Of a DNA stretch of 64,000 nucleotides, positions 1,634 through 30,305 are shown one piece after another (position 1 is the stretch's first letter; each line of letters starts with the position of its first letter). The stretch comes from a virus, in the IMG/VR virus record IMGVR_UViG_3300024239_000017; one strand, 5' to 3'. Under the pieces are notes generated by a model. The model had not been told where the DNA came from and did no database searches. It worked only from the letters and a program-made list of their open reading frames with translations. Both the position numbers and the translations under genes were made by a program.

Positions 1634-1730
1634 AGATTTATATTGGCGGAATTGGTATACAGCGATTGAAGGCAAGAGCTCAGGTAATTCACTAGAAATG
1701 GTTACAGGTTCGAATCCTGTATATAAATCT
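1634..1730 (+). ncRNA. tRNA-like element: Leu-type D arm and canonical T arm, no normal anticodon loop
   Basis: GGCGGAATTGGTATAC D arm, ACAGG-TTCGAAT-CCTGT, AT-rich acceptor, about 17-nt loop in place of the anticodon. Confidence 0.6.
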
Positions 1731-4958: not shown

Positions 4959-5030
4959 GGTCTATTCGTCTATCGGTTAGGATACAAGATTTTCACTCTT
5001 GCGAGGCGGGTTCGATTCCCGCATAGACTA
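4959..5030 (+). tRNA. tRNA-Glu(TTC)
   Basis: GGTCTAT/ATAGACT, CAAGA-TTTTCAC-TCTTG. Confidence 0.92.
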
Positions 5031-5653: not shown

Positions 5654-5685
5654 AAGACACATTTTTCGGAAATGTGTCTTTTTTA
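5654..5685 (+). terminator. Intrinsic terminator ending the tRNA cluster
   Basis: AAGACACATTT-TTCGG-AAATGTGTCTT followed by a T tract. Confidence 0.85.
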
Positions 5686-5717
5686 TTTGCATATGTCAAA
5701 AATTTTTCGTATGTTTG
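5686..5717 (+). promoter_or_regulatory. Bacteroidota-type promoter (repeated 32-bp unit)
   Basis: TTTG(5686)-N20-TATGTTTG(5710-5717). Confidence 0.82.
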
Positions 5718-5721
5718 CAGT

Positions 5722-6786
5722 ATGAAAAATAAAGTAAATATAACAGCACATAGTTTGTCACCACAAGGAGATGAACTTATTACAGTATTGGCTACATTTC
5801 CTAGAATTATATTAGCCGAAATTAATACACATAGAATGTTAAGTAAAAATACTTCTTCGAGTAGAGCAATTCCATTTAAAAAAATGGTTGAAAGTGTTCA
5901 AAACAATCCTTTTATTCCTATTGCTTGGCAGAAAGAACATACTGGAATGCAAGGATATGAATATATTACTGATAAAGAACAATTAGAAGCATTAGAAAAA
6001 ATATGGTTATATAGTAGGGATGAAGCTGTAAGAAGTGCAAAAGCTATTAGTTCAGGCACTTTTGAATTAGACTTAGGAATTAAATATAACTATGGATTTA
6101 AAGCTACTAAACAACTAGCTAACAGACTTCTTGAACCATTTATGTGGACTACTATGTTAATTACAGGTAGTAGAGAAGGTTGGAATAATTTTTTTAATTT
6201 GAGATGCCCTCAGTATAAAATCCATCAAGGTACGTATAAAAGTAAGAAAGAAGCTTTAGAATACGGTCTTTCAAATGGTGAATTAAAAAATTGGAGTGAT
6301 TTGGATTGGTTACAAAACAATGAAGGTCACGCAGAAATTCATATAATGGATTTGGCTGAAAAGATTTATGATGCTGTAAACGAATCTACACCTAAGCAAC
6401 TTAAAGCAGGTGAATGGCATATTCCTTTTGAGGATGAAATCAGAAAGCTTGATATACCAGAATCGGTCAAAAGTGAATATTATAAAAATGGTATTGAACC
6501 ACATTCAGCGGTAAAAGATATTTTAATTAAGGTCTCGACTGCAATGTCCGCACATACATCTTATACTGTAGTAGGAAACGAGCCTATTAAGTCTATAGAG
6601 AAGTGGATTGAGTTACATGATAAGCTAATTGGTTATGACCCACCTCACTCTTCACCAATGGAACATTGTTGTTTATGTGTTACAGAAGAAGAATATAATA
6701 GTTCATTTAAAGGACAGGAAAAAGGGTGGTTTAGAAACTATAAAAGTTTTAAATCTTATAGACAAATAATTGAAGAATCATTATAA
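5722..6786 (+). CDS. thyX: Flavin-dependent thymidylate synthase
   Basis: ThyX motif THRMLSKNTSSSR, KQLANRLLEPF, H.SP.EH; start at ATG 5722. Confidence 0.85.
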   Translation: MKNKVNITAHSLSPQGDELITVLATFPRIILAEINTHRMLSKNTSSSRAIPFKKMVESVQNNPFIPIAWQKEHTGMQGYEYITDKEQLEALEKIWLYSRDEAVRSAKAISSGTFELDLGIKYNYGFKATKQLANRLLEPFMWTTMLITGSREGWNNFFNLRCPQYKIHQGTYKSKKEALEYGLSNGELKNWSDLDWLQNNEGHAEIHIMDLAEKIYDAVNESTPKQLKAGEWHIPFEDEIRKLDIPESVKSEYYKNGIEPHSAVKDILIKVSTAMSAHTSYTVVGNEPIKSIEKWIELHDKLIGYDPPHSSPMEHCCLCVTEEEYNSSFKGQEKGWFRNYKSFKSYRQIIEESL

Positions 6787-6816
6787 TTTTGTACTATAAT
6801 ACAATAATATAAAACT

Positions 6817-7617
6817 ATGAAAAGTGGTATATATAAAATAGAAAATAAAATAACTAAAGATATTTATGTAGGTAGCAGTGTTAATTTAAGTAATAGAAAA
6901 TCTAGACATTTTAAAGATTTAGAAAAACAAATTCATCATTCAATTATTTTACAAAGAGCTGTAAATAAATATGGAATTGAAAATTTTGATTTTATAATTA
7001 TTGAAAAATGTAATAAAGATGATTTATTAAATAGAGAACAATATTATTTAGATACATTACAACCTTTATATAATATATTATCTAATGCAGGAAATTCAAT
7101 AGGACATATTGTATCTGAAAAAACTAAAGAAAAACTTAGACAATATGCTATTCAAAATGATATAAAACCTCCAGAAACAACTTGGAAAAGTAAGCAAGAA
7201 AAAGTTTACATGTTAGATAAAAAAACATTAACAGTTCTAAAAGAATTTGATTCTTTATCTTCGGCATGTAGATTTATTGGAAAAAATGAAACGTTTGTAT
7301 CTACTATTTCTGCGTGTTGTACTAATAAAAGATTTTCTGCATTTGGATATAGATGGACATATTCTATTACAGATATTTTTAATTTAAGGAATAAAATTAA
7401 AAAAGATCCTTGGAATAAAGGGATAAAAATAGATAATAAAAAATCCAAAAAAGTATTTCAATACACCAAACAAGGAAAATTTATAAAAGAATGGAAATCA
7501 GTTAAAGAAGCAGAATCTTTTTACGGTAAAGGTATATCTAACTGTGCATTAGGAAAAAGTAAATCTTCAAATGGATTTATTTGGAGGTATTTCATTGATA
7601 ATAATATTGAATTATAA
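6817..7617 (+). CDS. GIY-YIG homing endonuclease with NUMOD1-type repeats
   Basis: SGIYKI...YVGSS...REQYY...YNI; C-terminal VFQY..G.FIKEW.S..EA repeats. Confidence 0.9.
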   Translation: MKSGIYKIENKITKDIYVGSSVNLSNRKSRHFKDLEKQIHHSIILQRAVNKYGIENFDFIIIEKCNKDDLLNREQYYLDTLQPLYNILSNAGNSIGHIVSEKTKEKLRQYAIQNDIKPPETTWKSKQEKVYMLDKKTLTVLKEFDSLSSACRFIGKNETFVSTISACCTNKRFSAFGYRWTYSITDIFNLRNKIKKDPWNKGIKIDNKKSKKVFQYTKQGKFIKEWKSVKEAESFYGKGISNCALGKSKSSNGFIWRYFIDNNIEL

Positions 7618-16125: not shown

Positions 16126-16220
16126 GACCTGTTCGTCTAGTGGTAAGGATAAGGCACGTGTTAATGCTTATAGATTAGTTAACACCGTCCGAGACAGAGG
16201 TTCGACTCCTCTACAGGTTA
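16126..16220 (+). ncRNA. tRNA-Glu-like body with the anticodon arm replaced by a long hairpin
   Basis: GACCTGT/ACAGGTT-A, Glu-type D arm, AGAGG-TTCGACT-CCTCT, GTGTTAA-N14-TTAACAC. Confidence 0.75.
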
Positions 16221-16243
16221 CAAATTAATTAAACTTAATAATT

Positions 16244-18471: not shown

Positions 18472-18543
18472 GGCTCGTTCGTCTATCGGTTAGGACACTT
18501 GGTTTTCAACCAAGCAAGAGGGGTTCGATTCCCCTACGAGCTA
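18472..18543 (+). tRNA. tRNA-Glu(TTC), second copy
   Basis: GGCTCGT/ACGAGCT, CTTGG-TTTTCAA-CCAAG. Confidence 0.92.
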
Positions 18544-24504: not shown

Positions 24505-25380
24505 ATGAATAAATACTGTGTAGAACGTAATATTTCAAATTTTGAAGAAGTTAATAAACTATTTTCAGAATTATATAATAAGATTTATAAAGGTAAAGGA
24601 GTTTGCATAGAAAGAGGACAAATTCGTGATTATTTACATTACCCTTATATAGATAACAAAAAGGTTGTAAGCTCATATATAAGTAAAGGTTATAAAAAAA
24701 TAACATTAACAGAATTAAAAAGTATGATAATGAGTAATAAAAAATATACTAAACAAGATTGGTTAGATGGTAAGATTGCTTTGATTAACCATCCTGAAGA
24801 TAAAGTATACTTACAATCATTCTTTCAAGAATGTAATCAGCTTAATTCTAAACCTATTTTATCAAGCGGATATTATAGATGTGACACCAGTTCTTCATAT
24901 AAAGGAATGTGGGTAAGAGAAGCATTTACGTCTTTACCAAAAGTCAGAATAAAAGAGTTGATTATAAATGACATTTGTGGACAAAAAATAATAGGTTATA
25001 AACTAAAAAAAGAGTATTTCAAATACGTTGATGTCATTAATCAATTAGTGTTTTATGTATATGGAGATTTTAATGCGGAAGACGTAATAGATTCCACAAT
25101 GACACAAACTTTGAAGATATTAGAAAAATCCAAGATATTAGATAAATGGTTTGATGAAGTTTATTTCAAAGAACCAAAATTACCTATAATAAATAAATAT
25201 GAAGGCAAGTATCATAAAAATAGCCATATATCTTATGGTTGTGCAGAGTTGCCTTTAGAATGGTTTATATCTGATAAAAATAGAAGTATGACTTCGATAA
25301 CTCTTAATTCAGGAGCAGTACTTTCAAAATCAGATATAGAACAAATAAAAGAATACCTTATTTATCAAAATAATAAATAA
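24505..25380 (+). CDS. Hypothetical protein
   Basis: 291-aa ORF. Confidence 0.7.
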   Translation: MNKYCVERNISNFEEVNKLFSELYNKIYKGKGVCIERGQIRDYLHYPYIDNKKVVSSYISKGYKKITLTELKSMIMSNKKYTKQDWLDGKIALINHPEDKVYLQSFFQECNQLNSKPILSSGYYRCDTSSSYKGMWVREAFTSLPKVRIKELIINDICGQKIIGYKLKKEYFKYVDVINQLVFYVYGDFNAEDVIDSTMTQTLKILEKSKILDKWFDEVYFKEPKLPIINKYEGKYHKNSHISYGCAELPLEWFISDKNRSMTSITLNSGAVLSKSDIEQIKEYLIYQNNK

Positions 25381-25388
25381 TAATGGTA

Positions 25389-25459
25389 GGTGCCATAGCT
25401 CAGTAGGTAGAGCTGTGACGACGGTCATGAAAGCATAGGTTCGAACCCTATTGGCACCA
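25389..25459 (+). ncRNA. tRNA-like element with a 4-nt loop instead of an anticodon
   Basis: GGTGCCA/TGGCACC-A, canonical D and T arms, TGTGAC-GACG-GTCATG. Confidence 0.75.
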
Positions 25460-25463
25460 CAGA

Positions 25464-25735
25464 TTGACTTGTTGACTTAGTAAGCAACTTTGCAGGACGA
25501 GGGTTCGAATCCCTCCATCTCCACTACGTTATCACATGAGTGATTGTCAGTTAAATTCCCTAGAAGTTCATCAGAGCATGGTCTGATAAAAATGGGGATG
25601 ACTGGTTTCGACTGTAAACAGAGGTACTAACGAGAGTTAATTCATAAGTAAACGGAAACGTTGTAAAAATGAACTTCGCTACTGCTAGAGCAGTGGCATA
25701 GTTCCGTTCGGGGAGAACGACATCTCCCCATTTTT
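25464..25735 (+). ncRNA. ssrA: Permuted (two-piece) tmRNA; tag (A)GNVVKMNFATARAVA
   Basis: Acceptor piece GGACGAGGGTTCGAATCCCTCCATCTCCA ends at 25523, before the coding piece GGGGATGACTGGTTTCGAC starting at 25594; G3:U70; tag ORF 25654-25701; terminator hairpin follows. Confidence 0.85.
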
Positions 25736-25758
25736 AAAAGACTAACATTATTTAATAT

Positions 25759-26541
25759 ATGAGTACTAAAGTAAGAACTAGAGTAGCACCCTCGCCGACA
25801 GGCTTTTTTCACATCGGTACATTGAGAACTGCTTTATTAAATTATTTATTTGCAAAAGCAAATGACGGTGAATTTATCTTAAGAATAGATGATACAGACC
25901 AAGAAAGAGGAGACCAATCTTTAATAGATTATATCCACACTCAAATGAGTGATTTTAAGTTACAACATGATTTAACGTTTCAACAATCTGACAGATTAGA
26001 CAGATACAATGAAATTGCTAGATTGATAGGTACCTTAGAAAGTGATGGTAGTATTTCTATACAAATGGATGGATACACTATGGGATTAATCAGAAGTAAT
26101 GGTTTTCCTTTATATAATTTTGCAACAGTAGTAGATGATTTTGACTACGATATTACACATATTATAAGAGGAGTTGACCATATTTCAAACGCACAAAAAC
26201 AAAAAATACTATGGTATAAAATTGCTGACGCTTTAAAAAGCACTAAACAGTTTCCTGAGTTAATACATGCAGGATTATTATTAGACGGTAAGACAGGTAA
26301 AAAAATCTCTAAAAGAGATGGTTCTGGACTAGTATCAGATTATTCTGACTATAAAAAAGAAGCTATATTAAATTGGATTCTAAAGTTAGGATGGTCACAC
26401 AAAGATTCAAAATTTGACAAACATTATCCAACATTAACAATCGACCAAATGGTCGAAGTATTTAACGGTGGAAAAATCAACCAATCTAATGTAAAAGTAT
26501 TTATAGATAAGTTAGATTGGTTTAACAAGAAATTTAAATAA
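25759..26541 (+). CDS. Glutamyl-tRNA synthetase-like protein, catalytic domain only
   Basis: RTRVAPSPTG..HIGT, LRIDDTD, YNFATVVDD, IIRGVDH, KISKR; ends before the anticodon-binding domain. Confidence 0.88.
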   Translation: MSTKVRTRVAPSPTGFFHIGTLRTALLNYLFAKANDGEFILRIDDTDQERGDQSLIDYIHTQMSDFKLQHDLTFQQSDRLDRYNEIARLIGTLESDGSISIQMDGYTMGLIRSNGFPLYNFATVVDDFDYDITHIIRGVDHISNAQKQKILWYKIADALKSTKQFPELIHAGLLLDGKTGKKISKRDGSGLVSDYSDYKKEAILNWILKLGWSHKDSKFDKHYPTLTIDQMVEVFNGGKINQSNVKVFIDKLDWFNKKFK

Positions 26542-26569
26542 TTATTCAACCTTTATTAATTTTTTTATC

Positions 26570-27187
26570 ATGAAAAAAACAGCTTTATCAGGAGTTTTCA
26601 CTCCAAAAACAAAAAAAGACGCAGTAAAATTCCAAAAATTAGCAATCGCTTTAGGTTTTGCTTGGAAAAAAGCAGGTGCGAAAGTAATCAGTCTTAAAGA
26701 CGGTCAAGCCATCAAATTAAAAGACGACGTGATGGTTCCTTGTACAGCTTGTGCAGACCAAGATACTCTTACTTTAGCAACAATGGAAAAAGAAGTTATT
26801 TCTGCTAGAGAAGGTAAATTTGTGACAAATAGAGCTTCTTTACTAGAAGTTTTTAACGAAACTAAATGTAGAGAAATCGAAGACGTCATCAAAAAAATCT
26901 TACAAGATAACTATGACAAAGCCGATAACGAAGACTTCGTTGTTCCGCAAGAATATGTAGACAGAGCTTCAGTAGAACTTTCTGACGAACAAAGAGCATA
27001 TTTTGCTGCCGCAGGATTGTATATTTCACATCCTTATGATGGATATAAAGTATCTTCTGTTAACGGATCTGAAGTACCTGCCGATTTAAATCTTAGAACT
27101 AAAACTTTAACAGAAGTAGCTTCTGGTACAAAAGTAGGTTCTGTGTTTACTGATACAGACGGAAACGTGTACTTTGTTAGTAAATAA
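26570..27187 (+). CDS. Hypothetical protein
   Basis: 205 aa, biased codon usage. Confidence 0.7.
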   Translation: MKKTALSGVFTPKTKKDAVKFQKLAIALGFAWKKAGAKVISLKDGQAIKLKDDVMVPCTACADQDTLTLATMEKEVISAREGKFVTNRASLLEVFNETKCREIEDVIKKILQDNYDKADNEDFVVPQEYVDRASVELSDEQRAYFAAAGLYISHPYDGYKVSSVNGSEVPADLNLRTKTLTEVASGTKVGSVFTDTDGNVYFVSK

Positions 27188-27228
27188 TAATAAAAAATCC
27201 CACTTATATTGAGTGGGATTTTATACTT

Positions 27229-27299
27229 GACCTGTTCGTCTAGTGGTTAGGACAATGCGCTGCGGTGTGTAAACAGAGGTTCGAATCCTCTACAGGTTA
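27229..27299 (+). ncRNA. tRNA-Glu-like body with a degenerate anticodon arm (6-nt loop)
   Basis: Same acceptor and T stems as 16126; ATGCG-CTGCGG-TGTGT. Confidence 0.75.
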
Positions 27300-27326
27300 C
27301 AATTAATTAACTAAATTTATTATATT

Positions 27327-29039: not shown

Positions 29040-30305
29040 ATGAATATAAAATTTTATAAAAAACTTCTAAGTTTTAGAAGTCATTCTAAATCTAGAAAGC
29101 AACTAGAATTTAGAGATTGGTTGGAAGCATACATAACTGTAGAATTTCCAGGAGTAACTACTGAAATAGACGATTATGGTAATCTATACGTAACTAAAAA
29201 CACTTCTGAACAAAGATATTATAACTGTGTAGTAGCGCATTTAGATATTAATCAGAAAGTAATTACTGATGATTTCAGTATATTAGTAATCAATAATTAT
29301 ATTGTTGGTATTAATAATGTTGACGGAAAACAAATTGGTTTAGGTCACGACGATAAAGTAGGTGTTTATTTTGCACTTCAAGCGTTAAAAAAGTTTGATA
29401 ATATCAAATGTTTCTTCCCGCTGGATGAAGAAGTAGGATTATTAGGAACTAGAGCGTCCGAAGAAGATTTCTTTAATGACGTAGGATTTTTCTTACAGTT
29501 AGACAGAAGAGGATATTATGATATTTCTCAGTTTACTAATGGTCATGCCACTGTTACATACGATACTAAAAAAGAATTTGAGAAATTATTATGTAAGTAT
29601 AATTTCCATTGGACAAATACGGTATCTACTGATGTTGGAGCATTAATACAGAGACATTTTACACAAGGAGTAAATATTTCATGTGGGTATAACAACGAGC
29701 ATACCAATGATGAGATATTACATGTTTTAAGATATGATAATAGTGAAAAGTTTGCTATGGAGTTATTAAAACTTACCAATAATAAGTTTTATTACATGGA
29801 TATAACTACTACTACATATAACAAACCTGTTGCGAAAACAGTTACGTCTGGATATACGTGTGGGTATTCAAATTCTTCTAACACTAGTAATCAAAATGTA
29901 CAGTCCACTGCTACCCCAACGCTAAAAAAAGATGCGACAAGGAATAAAGAAGAAAAAAAAACAAAGACTACACCATCAATTTTCGAAGAAGGTAAGTCAA
30001 TAACACAGTTAGAAACTTTGGAAGATGAGCTTGAATATTCTATAGAAATGTTATTAGATATAGATATTACTAGTTTAAAAGAGTACAATGAGTTCAAAAA
30101 AATAGTAGCGGATATTCAATCTGAACTTAAAAAAGTACAAGATGAGCATTTAAGAAATACCTTAGTGTATAGATTATATACAAATGTTTGCTCTGTTAAT
30201 GATACCTATTCTTTATCTCCGTATAGAAATTTAGGTACATTACATGATTTGGAAAAAGATCTAGAAACAGATTGGTTGAAAGCACAAGAAGATTATAACA
30301 CTTGA
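29040..30305 (+). CDS. Zn-dependent peptidase/hydrolase (M20/M28-like)
   Basis: AHLD, GHDDKVG, DEEVG, LDRRG, NISCGYNNEH. Confidence 0.8.
   Translation: MNIKFYKKLLSFRSHSKSRKQLEFRDWLEAYITVEFPGVTTEIDDYGNLYVTKNTSEQRYYNCVVAHLDINQKVITDDFSILVINNYIVGINNVDGKQIGLGHDDKVGVYFALQALKKFDNIKCFFPLDEEVGLLGTRASEEDFFNDVGFFLQLDRRGYYDISQFTNGHATVTYDTKKEFEKLLCKYNFHWTNTVSTDVGALIQRHFTQGVNISCGYNNEHTNDEILHVLRYDNSEKFAMELLKLTNNKFYYMDITTTTYNKPVAKTVTSGYTCGYSNSSNTSNQNVQSTATPTLKKDATRNKEEKKTKTTPSIFEEGKSITQLETLEDELEYSIEMLLDIDITSLKEYNEFKKIVADIQSELKKVQDEHLRNTLVYRLYTNVCSVNDTYSLSPYRNLGTLHDLEKDLETDWLKAQEDYNT

Follow-up and report, generated by a model that had tools for sequence, protein, structure and literature searches.

A minimal glutamyl-tRNA synthetase family of huge phages, predicted to be anticodon-blind, and its tRNA-Glu-like neighbours

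Introduction

What could a glutamyl-tRNA synthetase (GluRS) still do if it kept only its catalytic core, and which RNAs would it serve? The question is raised by a 260-aa open reading frame (ORF) in a 64,000-nt stretch of viral DNA, IMG/VR record IMGVR_UViG_3300024239_000017, referred to throughout as the window. On either side of this mini-GluRS gene, starting at positions 27229 and 16126, lie two RNAs that resemble tRNA-Glu in body and carry no usable anticodon; we call them the mimics and name each by its first position. The original prediction saw in this arrangement an anticodon-independent synthetase–RNA pair. The enzyme proves to belong to a conserved phage family derived from bacterial GltX, and aberrant Glu-bodied RNAs are enriched around its genes.

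Results

A GluRS reduced to its catalytic core

The Glu/Gln class I catalytic domain, PF00749 (tRNA-synt_1c), matched the ORF product in two stretches at 162 bits (gathering score 23.4, E 1.9e-47). Its top NCBIfam match was gltX_bact (TIGR00464) at 221.5 bits, under the cut-off of 289.95 because domains are missing; the score against the GluQRS model (TIGR03838) was 120 bits and did not reach that model's cut-off of 276.7. Aligned to E. coli GluRS (8i9i), enzyme residues 4–87 correspond to residues 2–86 and enzyme residues 110–258 to residues 172–309. E. coli residues 87–171 are matched by just 22 residues, a gap that recurs in the family profile, and the AlphaFold model places strands at 99–103 and 106–111 around this linker. 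The segment lost is the acceptor-binding insertion, which we take to be the zinc-binding module of E. coli GluRS. The chain ends at the equivalent of about residue 309 of the E. coli protein, with nothing beyond, and the anticodon-binding domain PF19269 is absent. Retained are the HIGT and KISKR motifs and the glutamate-site block YNF...DD...RGVDH (Table 1).

The AlphaFold model is confidently predicted (pLDDT 91.9, pTM 0.90) and superposes on bacterial GltX, which supplied the top Foldseek structures (TMq 0.83–0.85), followed by GluQRS (0.67–0.72). A tblastn search of the window with two regions taken from six full-length GltX proteins, the insertion and the C-terminal part, returned only noise and no credible separately encoded anticodon-binding or insertion domain, so a locally split gene can be rejected. 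The domain match, the 8i9i alignment and the tblastn search together bear out the architecture in the original prediction, a class I catalytic domain with HIGT and KISKR motifs, a reduced insertion and no C-terminal anticodon domain. With no module for reading an anticodon, the enzyme is anticodon-blind by construction.

A phage-only family nested within GltX

A protein search recovered more than 120 protein clusters of 253–285 aa, at 54–97% identity, with the same short architecture and on contigs of up to 348 kb. IMG/VR holds 51 enzyme loci, most of them on contigs of 150–570 kb, and the top phage match in GenBank was the uncultured phage LR745206, of 634 kb; a single-protein scan of IMG/VR for close relatives gave no match. 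No long form of the family was found among longer proteins, which were only ordinary GltX of 460–490 aa scoring at most 180 bits. An alignment of 22 members contains 75 invariant columns, the HxGT, SKR and YNF...DD...RGxDH blocks included, and shows family-specific changes at two conserved acidic positions, RIEDTD having become RIDDTD and RGEDH having become RGVDH. Metagenomes in which DNA of the window was found came from the subsurface, soil, wastewater and aquatic settings. The enzyme ORF is also covered by Logan contigs assembled from RNA libraries in three studies; as DNA carry-over is possible, they are weak evidence of expression.

To place the family, we built a maximum-likelihood tree of 45 proteins, comprising 15 minimal forms, 12 phage forms of 230–325 aa without the anticodon domain, three full-length phage forms, 13 GltX and two GluQRS (from E. 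coli and an Acinetobacter record). The minimal forms make up one clade (support 100), which is sister (90) to the other phage forms without an anticodon-binding domain, hereafter the sister clade; the two together form one clade (99) inside GltX, and GluQ is set apart by a long branch (100). The topology gives the order of losses: a phage lineage of bacterial GltX lost the anticodon-binding domain at the root of the large phage clade, and the subclade that includes the present gene later lost the acceptor-binding/zinc insertion too. The original prediction had named a phylogeny against GltX and GluQ among its checks and clustering with GluQ as a refutation; in the tree and in the hidden Markov model scores the enzyme falls within GltX and not with GluQ, so that the prediction passes this check and the enzyme is a GltX derivative and not a GluQ relative. 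The family is phage-only, widespread and conserved, a new phage-specific variant of GltX.

tRNA-Glu-bodied RNAs without a usable anticodon

The window is AT-rich phage DNA (~28% GC) with 28 tRNA calls by ARAGORN. Stop-codon recoding was considered and rejected, the standard code yielding a normal ORF set. Besides two canonical tRNA-Glu genes, at 4959 and 18472, it contains the two mimics, which score 45 bits (27229–27299) and 41.4 bits (16126–16220) against the Rfam tRNA model (RF00005, gathering score 29) and both adopt cloverleaves as their minimum-free-energy folds. ARAGORN reports 27229 as 'tRNA-???' with a 2-nt anticodon; its anticodon arm is a short, wobble-rich stem with the 6-nt loop CUGCGG. 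In 16126, the arm is a hairpin of ~12 bp with a loop of 12–14 nt. Neither mimic thus shows the 7-nt anticodon loop and YUC anticodon of a decoding tRNA-Glu.

Between the mimics, the acceptor stems are identical and the D and T arms nearly so, with anticodon arms that are entirely different. As the original prediction had stated, both share with tRNA-Glu 4959 and 18472 the G1:U72/A73 end and a UCGUCUA...GGU.AGGA D arm; the shared acceptor reads GACCUGU/ACAGGUU. The G1:U72/A73 end is nevertheless generic: among control tRNA-Glu genes of phages it occurs in 71 of 120 (59%), and we rejected it as an identity mark private to this pair. Both mimics retain U11:A24 and U13:G22, and a 4-nt variable region is present in 27229 and ambiguous in 16126; we take these three features to be non-anticodon identity elements of E. 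coli tRNA-Glu.

The exact pattern of the 5′ half of 27229 was absent from IMG/VR and found only at four loosely related loci in JGI metagenomes. The RNA-library contigs cover the enzyme ORF and the transfer-messenger RNA (tmRNA) and do not extend to this mimic, on whose expression, ends and CCA they are uninformative. Both mimics are followed, before the next ATG, by a common motif, CAA(A)TTAATTAA (16221–16234 and 27300–27313). Across the whole window there are only four exact copies of the 10-mer AATTAATTAA.

Aberrant Glu scaffolds are enriched at enzyme loci

Every enzyme locus was searched, to 8 kb on each side, for tRNA-Glu bodies whose acceptor and T stems were valid; collapsing redundant loci left 36. 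At least one aberrant Glu scaffold was present at 6 of these 36 loci, against 2 of 119 control loci (Fisher p=0.002), the controls being phage loci picked for a canonical tRNA-Glu and not matched for genome size, and the lineages being few. Counted as scaffolds, aberrant and canonical forms numbered 11 and 10 at enzyme loci and 2 and 112 at control loci. Inside enzyme loci, 7 of 17 Glu-bodied genes were aberrant, compared with 5 of 83 genes on other bodies (p=6e-4). The association of aberrant Glu scaffolds with enzyme loci is therefore real at this level.

The scaffolds take several forms. The two at locus L021 have loops of 5 and 6 nt, and a single one at L026 lies 500 nt upstream of the enzyme gene. 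Of the three at L034, one has an arm capped by a tetraloop, another an 8-nt loop and the third an extended arm. Hairpins in the D loop and odd arms mark the scaffolds at L013, L024, L025 and L027, 5–8 kb from the enzyme gene, and the genome of L029 has one such scaffold elsewhere. The co-occurrence proposed in the original prediction stands as a significant enrichment near the gene, and fails as an obligatory or exclusive pairing: 30 of the 36 non-redundant loci have no aberrant Glu scaffold within 8 kb, and among 27 phage records with extended-arm Glu/Gln-like bodies, a GluRS-like gene occurs in only one. That members of the family lie unusually often near Glu look-alikes lacking a usable anticodon is suggestive, though no proof, of a natural enzyme–RNA pair that ignores the anticodon.

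Related oddities accompany these scaffolds. A 9.4-kb JGI contig, L190, encodes tRNA-Glu-type bodies with the stop-codon-reading anticodons UUA and CUA (1090–1162 and 2842–2914); the CUA tRNA has the same 28-nt 5′ half as 27229, an ordinary tRNA-Glu of a different body lies alongside, and no enzyme gene is present on the contig. Such Glu-bodied CUA and UUA tRNAs are what an anticodon-blind GluRS would make usable. Anticodon-less tRNA-likes also occur on non-Glu bodies, at window positions 25389–25459, at 13473 in L026 and at 785 in L187. The first of these has a 5-bp anticodon-arm stem capped by a GACG tetraloop, scores 51 bits as an Rfam tRNA and lies 7 nt upstream of a permuted two-piece tmRNA (25467–25745; RF04321, 56 bits vs 47; G3:U70 acceptor; terminator 25710–25729). 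At L064 (G002:C1:222135-222196, minus strand), in a 464-kb phage genome with mini-GluRS, a 62-nt tRNA-like that adjoins tRNA-Gln and tRNA-Glu has acceptor, D and T arms, the anticodon arm being replaced by only ~11 nt. Three unrelated huge-phage loci hold an 83–93-nt 'tRNA-???' to which ARAGORN assigns a 4-nt anticodon, aagg or agga (window 1637–1729, L046 14394–14476, L021 7433–7518), which may be a conserved odd tRNA.

Genomic setting of the enzyme gene

Sister-clade genes stand directly behind tRNA-Glu triplets (UUC/CUC/UUC) in L039, L041 and L042, and a UUC/CUC pair lies ~2 kb upstream of the one in L044, a setting suggestive of tRNA-Glu-type acceptors as substrates. Every near-complete genome with the minimal form has a tRNA-Glu-type gene. 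LR745206 has three canonical tRNA-Glu genes of this type and no odd ones, G001 has one, and G003 has three plus two odd ones; G002 keeps one tRNA-Glu among only 7 tRNAs, and in G004, which has just 4, one is Glu-like and bears an insert in the D loop.

Four kinds of neighbour recur from locus to locus: an RNA ligase (PF09414) at 12 loci, a protein with an HD_4 domain at 10, one with a PTH2 domain at 8 and, also at 8, a 419-aa class Ia synthetase core. They make up a translation-maintenance and tRNA-repair setting. The class Ia core (PF00133/PF09334, LeuRS/MetRS-like) has an intact KMSKS motif and is without editing and C-terminal domains; it occurs at L002 149–1405 and, a few kb from mini-GluRS, also in L012, L013, L016, L025, L027 and L046.

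In LR745206, the mini-GluRS gene is flanked by genes for a gamma-glutamylcyclotransferase-like protein (PF06094, E 2e-18) and a tRNA_bind protein (PF01588, E 9e-14), at L001 6501–6836 and 10524–11054, both on the minus strand. The latter was rejected as a conserved partner, since neither flanking gene is kept at other loci. ORF205, which follows mini-GluRS in the window, gave no Pfam or PHROG match, and its Atlas scores, at 0.77, do not rise above noise; its adjacency to the enzyme gene is kept in ~90%-identical relatives seen in RNA-library contigs. The ORFs that neighbour the enzyme gene in the window do not recur beside its homologues, save for a peptidase-like gene in L034. This is an M42/M28-type metallopeptidase-like gene, 2.5 kb downstream of the enzyme (29040–30305; phrog_4191 'peptidase', E 4e-36; weak Pfam match to 'glutamyl aminopeptidase'), whose homologue in L034 (6064–7707) precedes the GluRS without an anticodon domain by 0.3 kb and was not seen at other loci. 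Further away, directly after the main tRNA array, a ThyX-like ORF (weak PF02511) is followed by a GIY-YIG/NUMOD1 homing-endonuclease-like ORF (5674–7617).

Table 1. Coordinates of the enzyme gene, its motifs and the associated RNA elements in the window
Feature	Position	Strand	Basis
Minimal GluRS, 260 aa, Rossmann catalytic core only	25759..26541	+	PF00749, AlphaFold, Foldseek, family conservation
HIGH-type motif HIGT, residues 18-21	25810..25821	+	H18 and T21 invariant, G20 nearly so (22-sequence alignment)
RIDDTD, family-invariant; RIEDTD in canonical bacterial GltX	25882..25899	+	Alignments
22-residue beta-hairpin linker, residues 88-109, replacing the ~85-residue acceptor-binding/zinc insertion of GltX	26020..26085	+	Alignment to 8i9i and model
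KMSKS-type motif KISKR, residues 182-186	26302..26316	+	K182, S184, K185 and R186 invariant (22-sequence alignment)
ORF205, 205 aa	26570..27187	+	28 nt downstream of the enzyme gene, before the hairpin
Hairpin and U run between ORF205 and tRNA-like 27229	27198..27222	+	Sequence; palindrome listed on minus strand
tRNA-Glu-bodied RNA, 71 nt, 6-nt (or 4-nt) anticodon loop, no triplet anticodon	27229..27299	+	Rfam, ARAGORN, fold
Paralogous tRNA-Glu-bodied RNA, 95 nt, anticodon arm a ~12-bp extended hairpin	16126..16220	+	Rfam, fold, sequence
Canonical phage tRNA-Glu(UUC), likely ordinary substrate	18472..18543	+	ARAGORN; Rfam 59 bits
Second canonical phage tRNA-Glu(UUC)	4959..5030	+	ARAGORN, sequence

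Discussion

We give even chances to the reading that the ORF encodes a functional, phage-specific, anticodon-blind GluRS whose clients are most likely tRNA-Glu-type acceptors. The Rossmann core that remains, with its ATP- and glutamate-site motifs intact, would activate glutamate with ATP and pass it on to tRNA-Glu-type molecules at their 3′ ends. Recognition would have to rely on features of the tRNA body, such as the acceptor end and the D-arm region, because no anticodon-reading module is present. The ordinary clients would be the phage's own tRNA-Glu and probably that of the host, and the enzyme could supply Glu-tRNA during infection as part of the phage gene set for translation maintenance and tRNA repair. 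Glu-bodied RNAs with altered or absent anticodons, 27229 and 16126 among them, should in principle be chargeable because the enzyme is anticodon-blind, and are plausible extra clients; that such non-decoding scaffolds are true substrates we consider rather unlikely.

Several observations weigh against this assignment. In GltX, the acceptor arm is held by the very insertion that is deleted here, which leaves tRNA binding by this core hard to explain, and no conserved partner protein was found. GltX normally requires tRNA to activate glutamate. The changes in RIDDTD and RGVDH fall on conserved acidic positions and could signal altered chemistry. In most close relatives within the minimal clade, no tRNA lies near the gene, and none of the recurrent neighbours (RNA ligase, HD_4, PTH2, class Ia core) was found in the 64-kb window.

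The alternative that survives best keeps the enzyme on normal tRNA-Glu only and leaves the tRNA-likes unconnected to it, as RNA-processing or cassette-boundary signals, at which cuts by RNase P/Z would separate mRNAs, or as leftover tRNA-Glu copies with a free arm; we hold it to be unlikely, though a live contender. The mimics occupy the same slots as the true tRNA-Glu 18472 and tRNA-Met 24407, in the order ORF stop, hairpin, tRNA and an ATG 14–28 nt on, and tRNA-likes without anticodons exist on other bodies, including the arm-less 62-nt form in G002. Moreover, a wastewater strain has a tRNA-Met in place of ORF 24505–25380 and tRNA-like 25389, exchanged at a tRNA 3′ end, and its assembly graph branches within the anticodon arm of the mimic, at 27252 and 27271; the swap and the branching together argue that tRNA-shaped elements mark cassette borders. 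Unconnected elements would not, however, explain why aberrant arms are concentrated on Glu bodies in enzyme loci and rare in controls, and in leftover copies decay would be expected across the whole molecule, whereas here the anticodon arm alone is altered. The anticodon arm of the mimic may vary between strains. Slot position and strain branching fit a processing or recombination role and also fit a scaffold with a variable arm; they do not in themselves implicate the enzyme.

Such a scaffold is at the heart of a second alternative, in which mini-GluRS specifically charges 27229 and 16126 and the Glu ester is used outside decoding, in tRNA-dependent transfer chemistry or to yield a charged, stabilized scaffold with a variable arm. 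The enrichment near the enzyme gene speaks for it, as do the conserved body and wholly different anticodon arms of the two paralogues, the D-loop-hairpin and odd-arm scaffolds found at four loci and in the L029 genome, and a strain-variant assembly graph that branches exactly at the anticodon arm. There is also a precedent: Mom, a phage enzyme, uses Gly-tRNA outside translation (PMC13219725). Against a dedicated pair stand the 30 of 36 enzyme loci without such RNAs within 8 kb, the three purely canonical tRNA-Glu genes of LR745206 and the 26 of 27 extended-arm phage records without the enzyme. Beside the gene we found no candidate aminoacyl-tRNA-dependent transferase, ORF205 being uninformative. 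Dedicated charging of the scaffolds seems doubtful, and a true-substrate role and an unrelated processing or cassette role for the mimics are about equally likely. A broader proposal, of a private anticodon-independent glutamyl system in huge phages, would have the Rossmann-only GluRS charge any tRNA-Glu-bodied RNA, be it a normal tRNA, a stop-codon suppressor or a non-decoding scaffold, the last serving as Glu carriers or as charged, stabilized RNA scaffolds outside ribosomal decoding; this we regard as quite doubtful. The interpretation in the original prediction is partly supported; its orthogonality, its non-ribosomal use of Glu and its charging of tRNAs with damaged anticodons are speculative.

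It is less probable again that the core has given up charging tRNA 3′ ends and glutamylates some other acceptor, such as a protein, small molecule or nucleobase, in the manner of EpmA/PoxA (EF-P) or GluQRS (queuosine). Both tRNA-holding modules are gone, the two acidic positions are changed family-wide, and a gamma-glutamylcyclotransferase-like gene adjoins the LR745206 homologue; other stripped synthetase cores have left tRNA charging (review PMC9437257). Yet sister-clade genes immediately follow tRNA-Glu triplets, tRNA-Glu scaffolds are enriched nearby, the neighbours are tRNA and translation genes with no modification-pathway genes among them, and the clade lies inside GltX in the tree and not with GluQ. 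That the ORF is a decaying gltX fragment or pseudogene from a host, as its score under the NCBIfam gltX cut-off might hint, is contradicted by conservation and exceedingly improbable, since the short architecture and intact motifs are kept in over 120 clusters with identities as low as 54%, the fold is confidently predicted and the gene sits in many huge-phage contigs of 150–570 kb.

If active, the anticodon-blind GluRS favoured here would be the smallest natural GluRS, a class I synthetase built on little more than a Rossmann core, and would bear on 'urzyme' models of synthetase origins and on which parts are truly needed for tRNA recognition. Together with its own tRNA-Glu-type scaffolds, it would form a ready-made candidate orthogonal pair for genetic-code engineering, and it could account for the loading of glutamate onto Glu-scaffold suppressor tRNAs in phages. 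The family sets synthetase minimization within the translation-maintenance and tRNA-repair gene sets of phages, and the survey shows that non-decoding look-alikes of tRNA-Glu form a recurrent class.

Comparison with known systems

Mini-GluRS resembles bacterial GltX (TIGR00464; E. coli 8i9i, Stenotrophomonas 7k86) in its catalytic Rossmann fold and its HIGH and K(I/L)SKR motifs, at ~31% identity and a TMq of 0.83. It differs from GltX in lacking the ~85-residue acceptor-binding/zinc insertion and the C-terminal anticodon-binding region (PF19269), and in having RIDDTD and RGVDH where GltX has RIEDTD and RGEDH. Laboratory C-truncated catalytic fragments of E. coli GluRS reportedly still charge tRNA-Glu, though poorly, without the anticodon-binding domain. 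Those constructs retain the acceptor-binding insertion, whereas the natural mini-GluRS is without it too.

Like mini-GluRS, GluQRS/YadB (TIGR03838; 1nzj, 4a91), of ~300 aa, is a GluRS paralogue without the anticodon-binding domain. It is nonetheless a separate lineage, which the mini-GluRS family profile matched in one stretch only, the N-terminal ~80 residues. GluQRS retains the zinc-bearing insertion that the mini-GluRS family has deleted. It acts on the queuosine of tRNA-Asp, and no tRNA-Asp gene is among the 28 ARAGORN calls in the window. YadB is the only GluRS paralogue given in reviews (PMC9437257).

The closest relatives are those of the sister clade (phage GluRS of 274–325 aa at loci L033–L050 and L185), which share with the minimal forms the absence of the anticodon-binding domain, a phage-only distribution and a common ancestor (99%); they differ in keeping a shortened insertion of ~55–60 residues. 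A literature search found no publication describing the architecture of either clade. Huge phages are known to carry tRNA synthetase genes, GluRS included, in a survey that does not report the minimal architecture (Al-Shayeb et al. 2020, PMC7162821), and a full-text search found no account of a phage GluRS without the anticodon domain or of Glu-bodied non-decoding tRNAs. For the RNAs, the nearest parallel is tRNA-Other of Bacillus cereus, a non-translational pseudo-tRNA (PMC3399842). The phage elements are likewise tRNA-shaped and non-decoding; unlike tRNA-Other, they have a tRNA-Glu body in which a loop of 4–6 nt or an extended hairpin replaces the anticodon loop, and they are clustered near a GluRS that is itself apparently blind to the anticodon.

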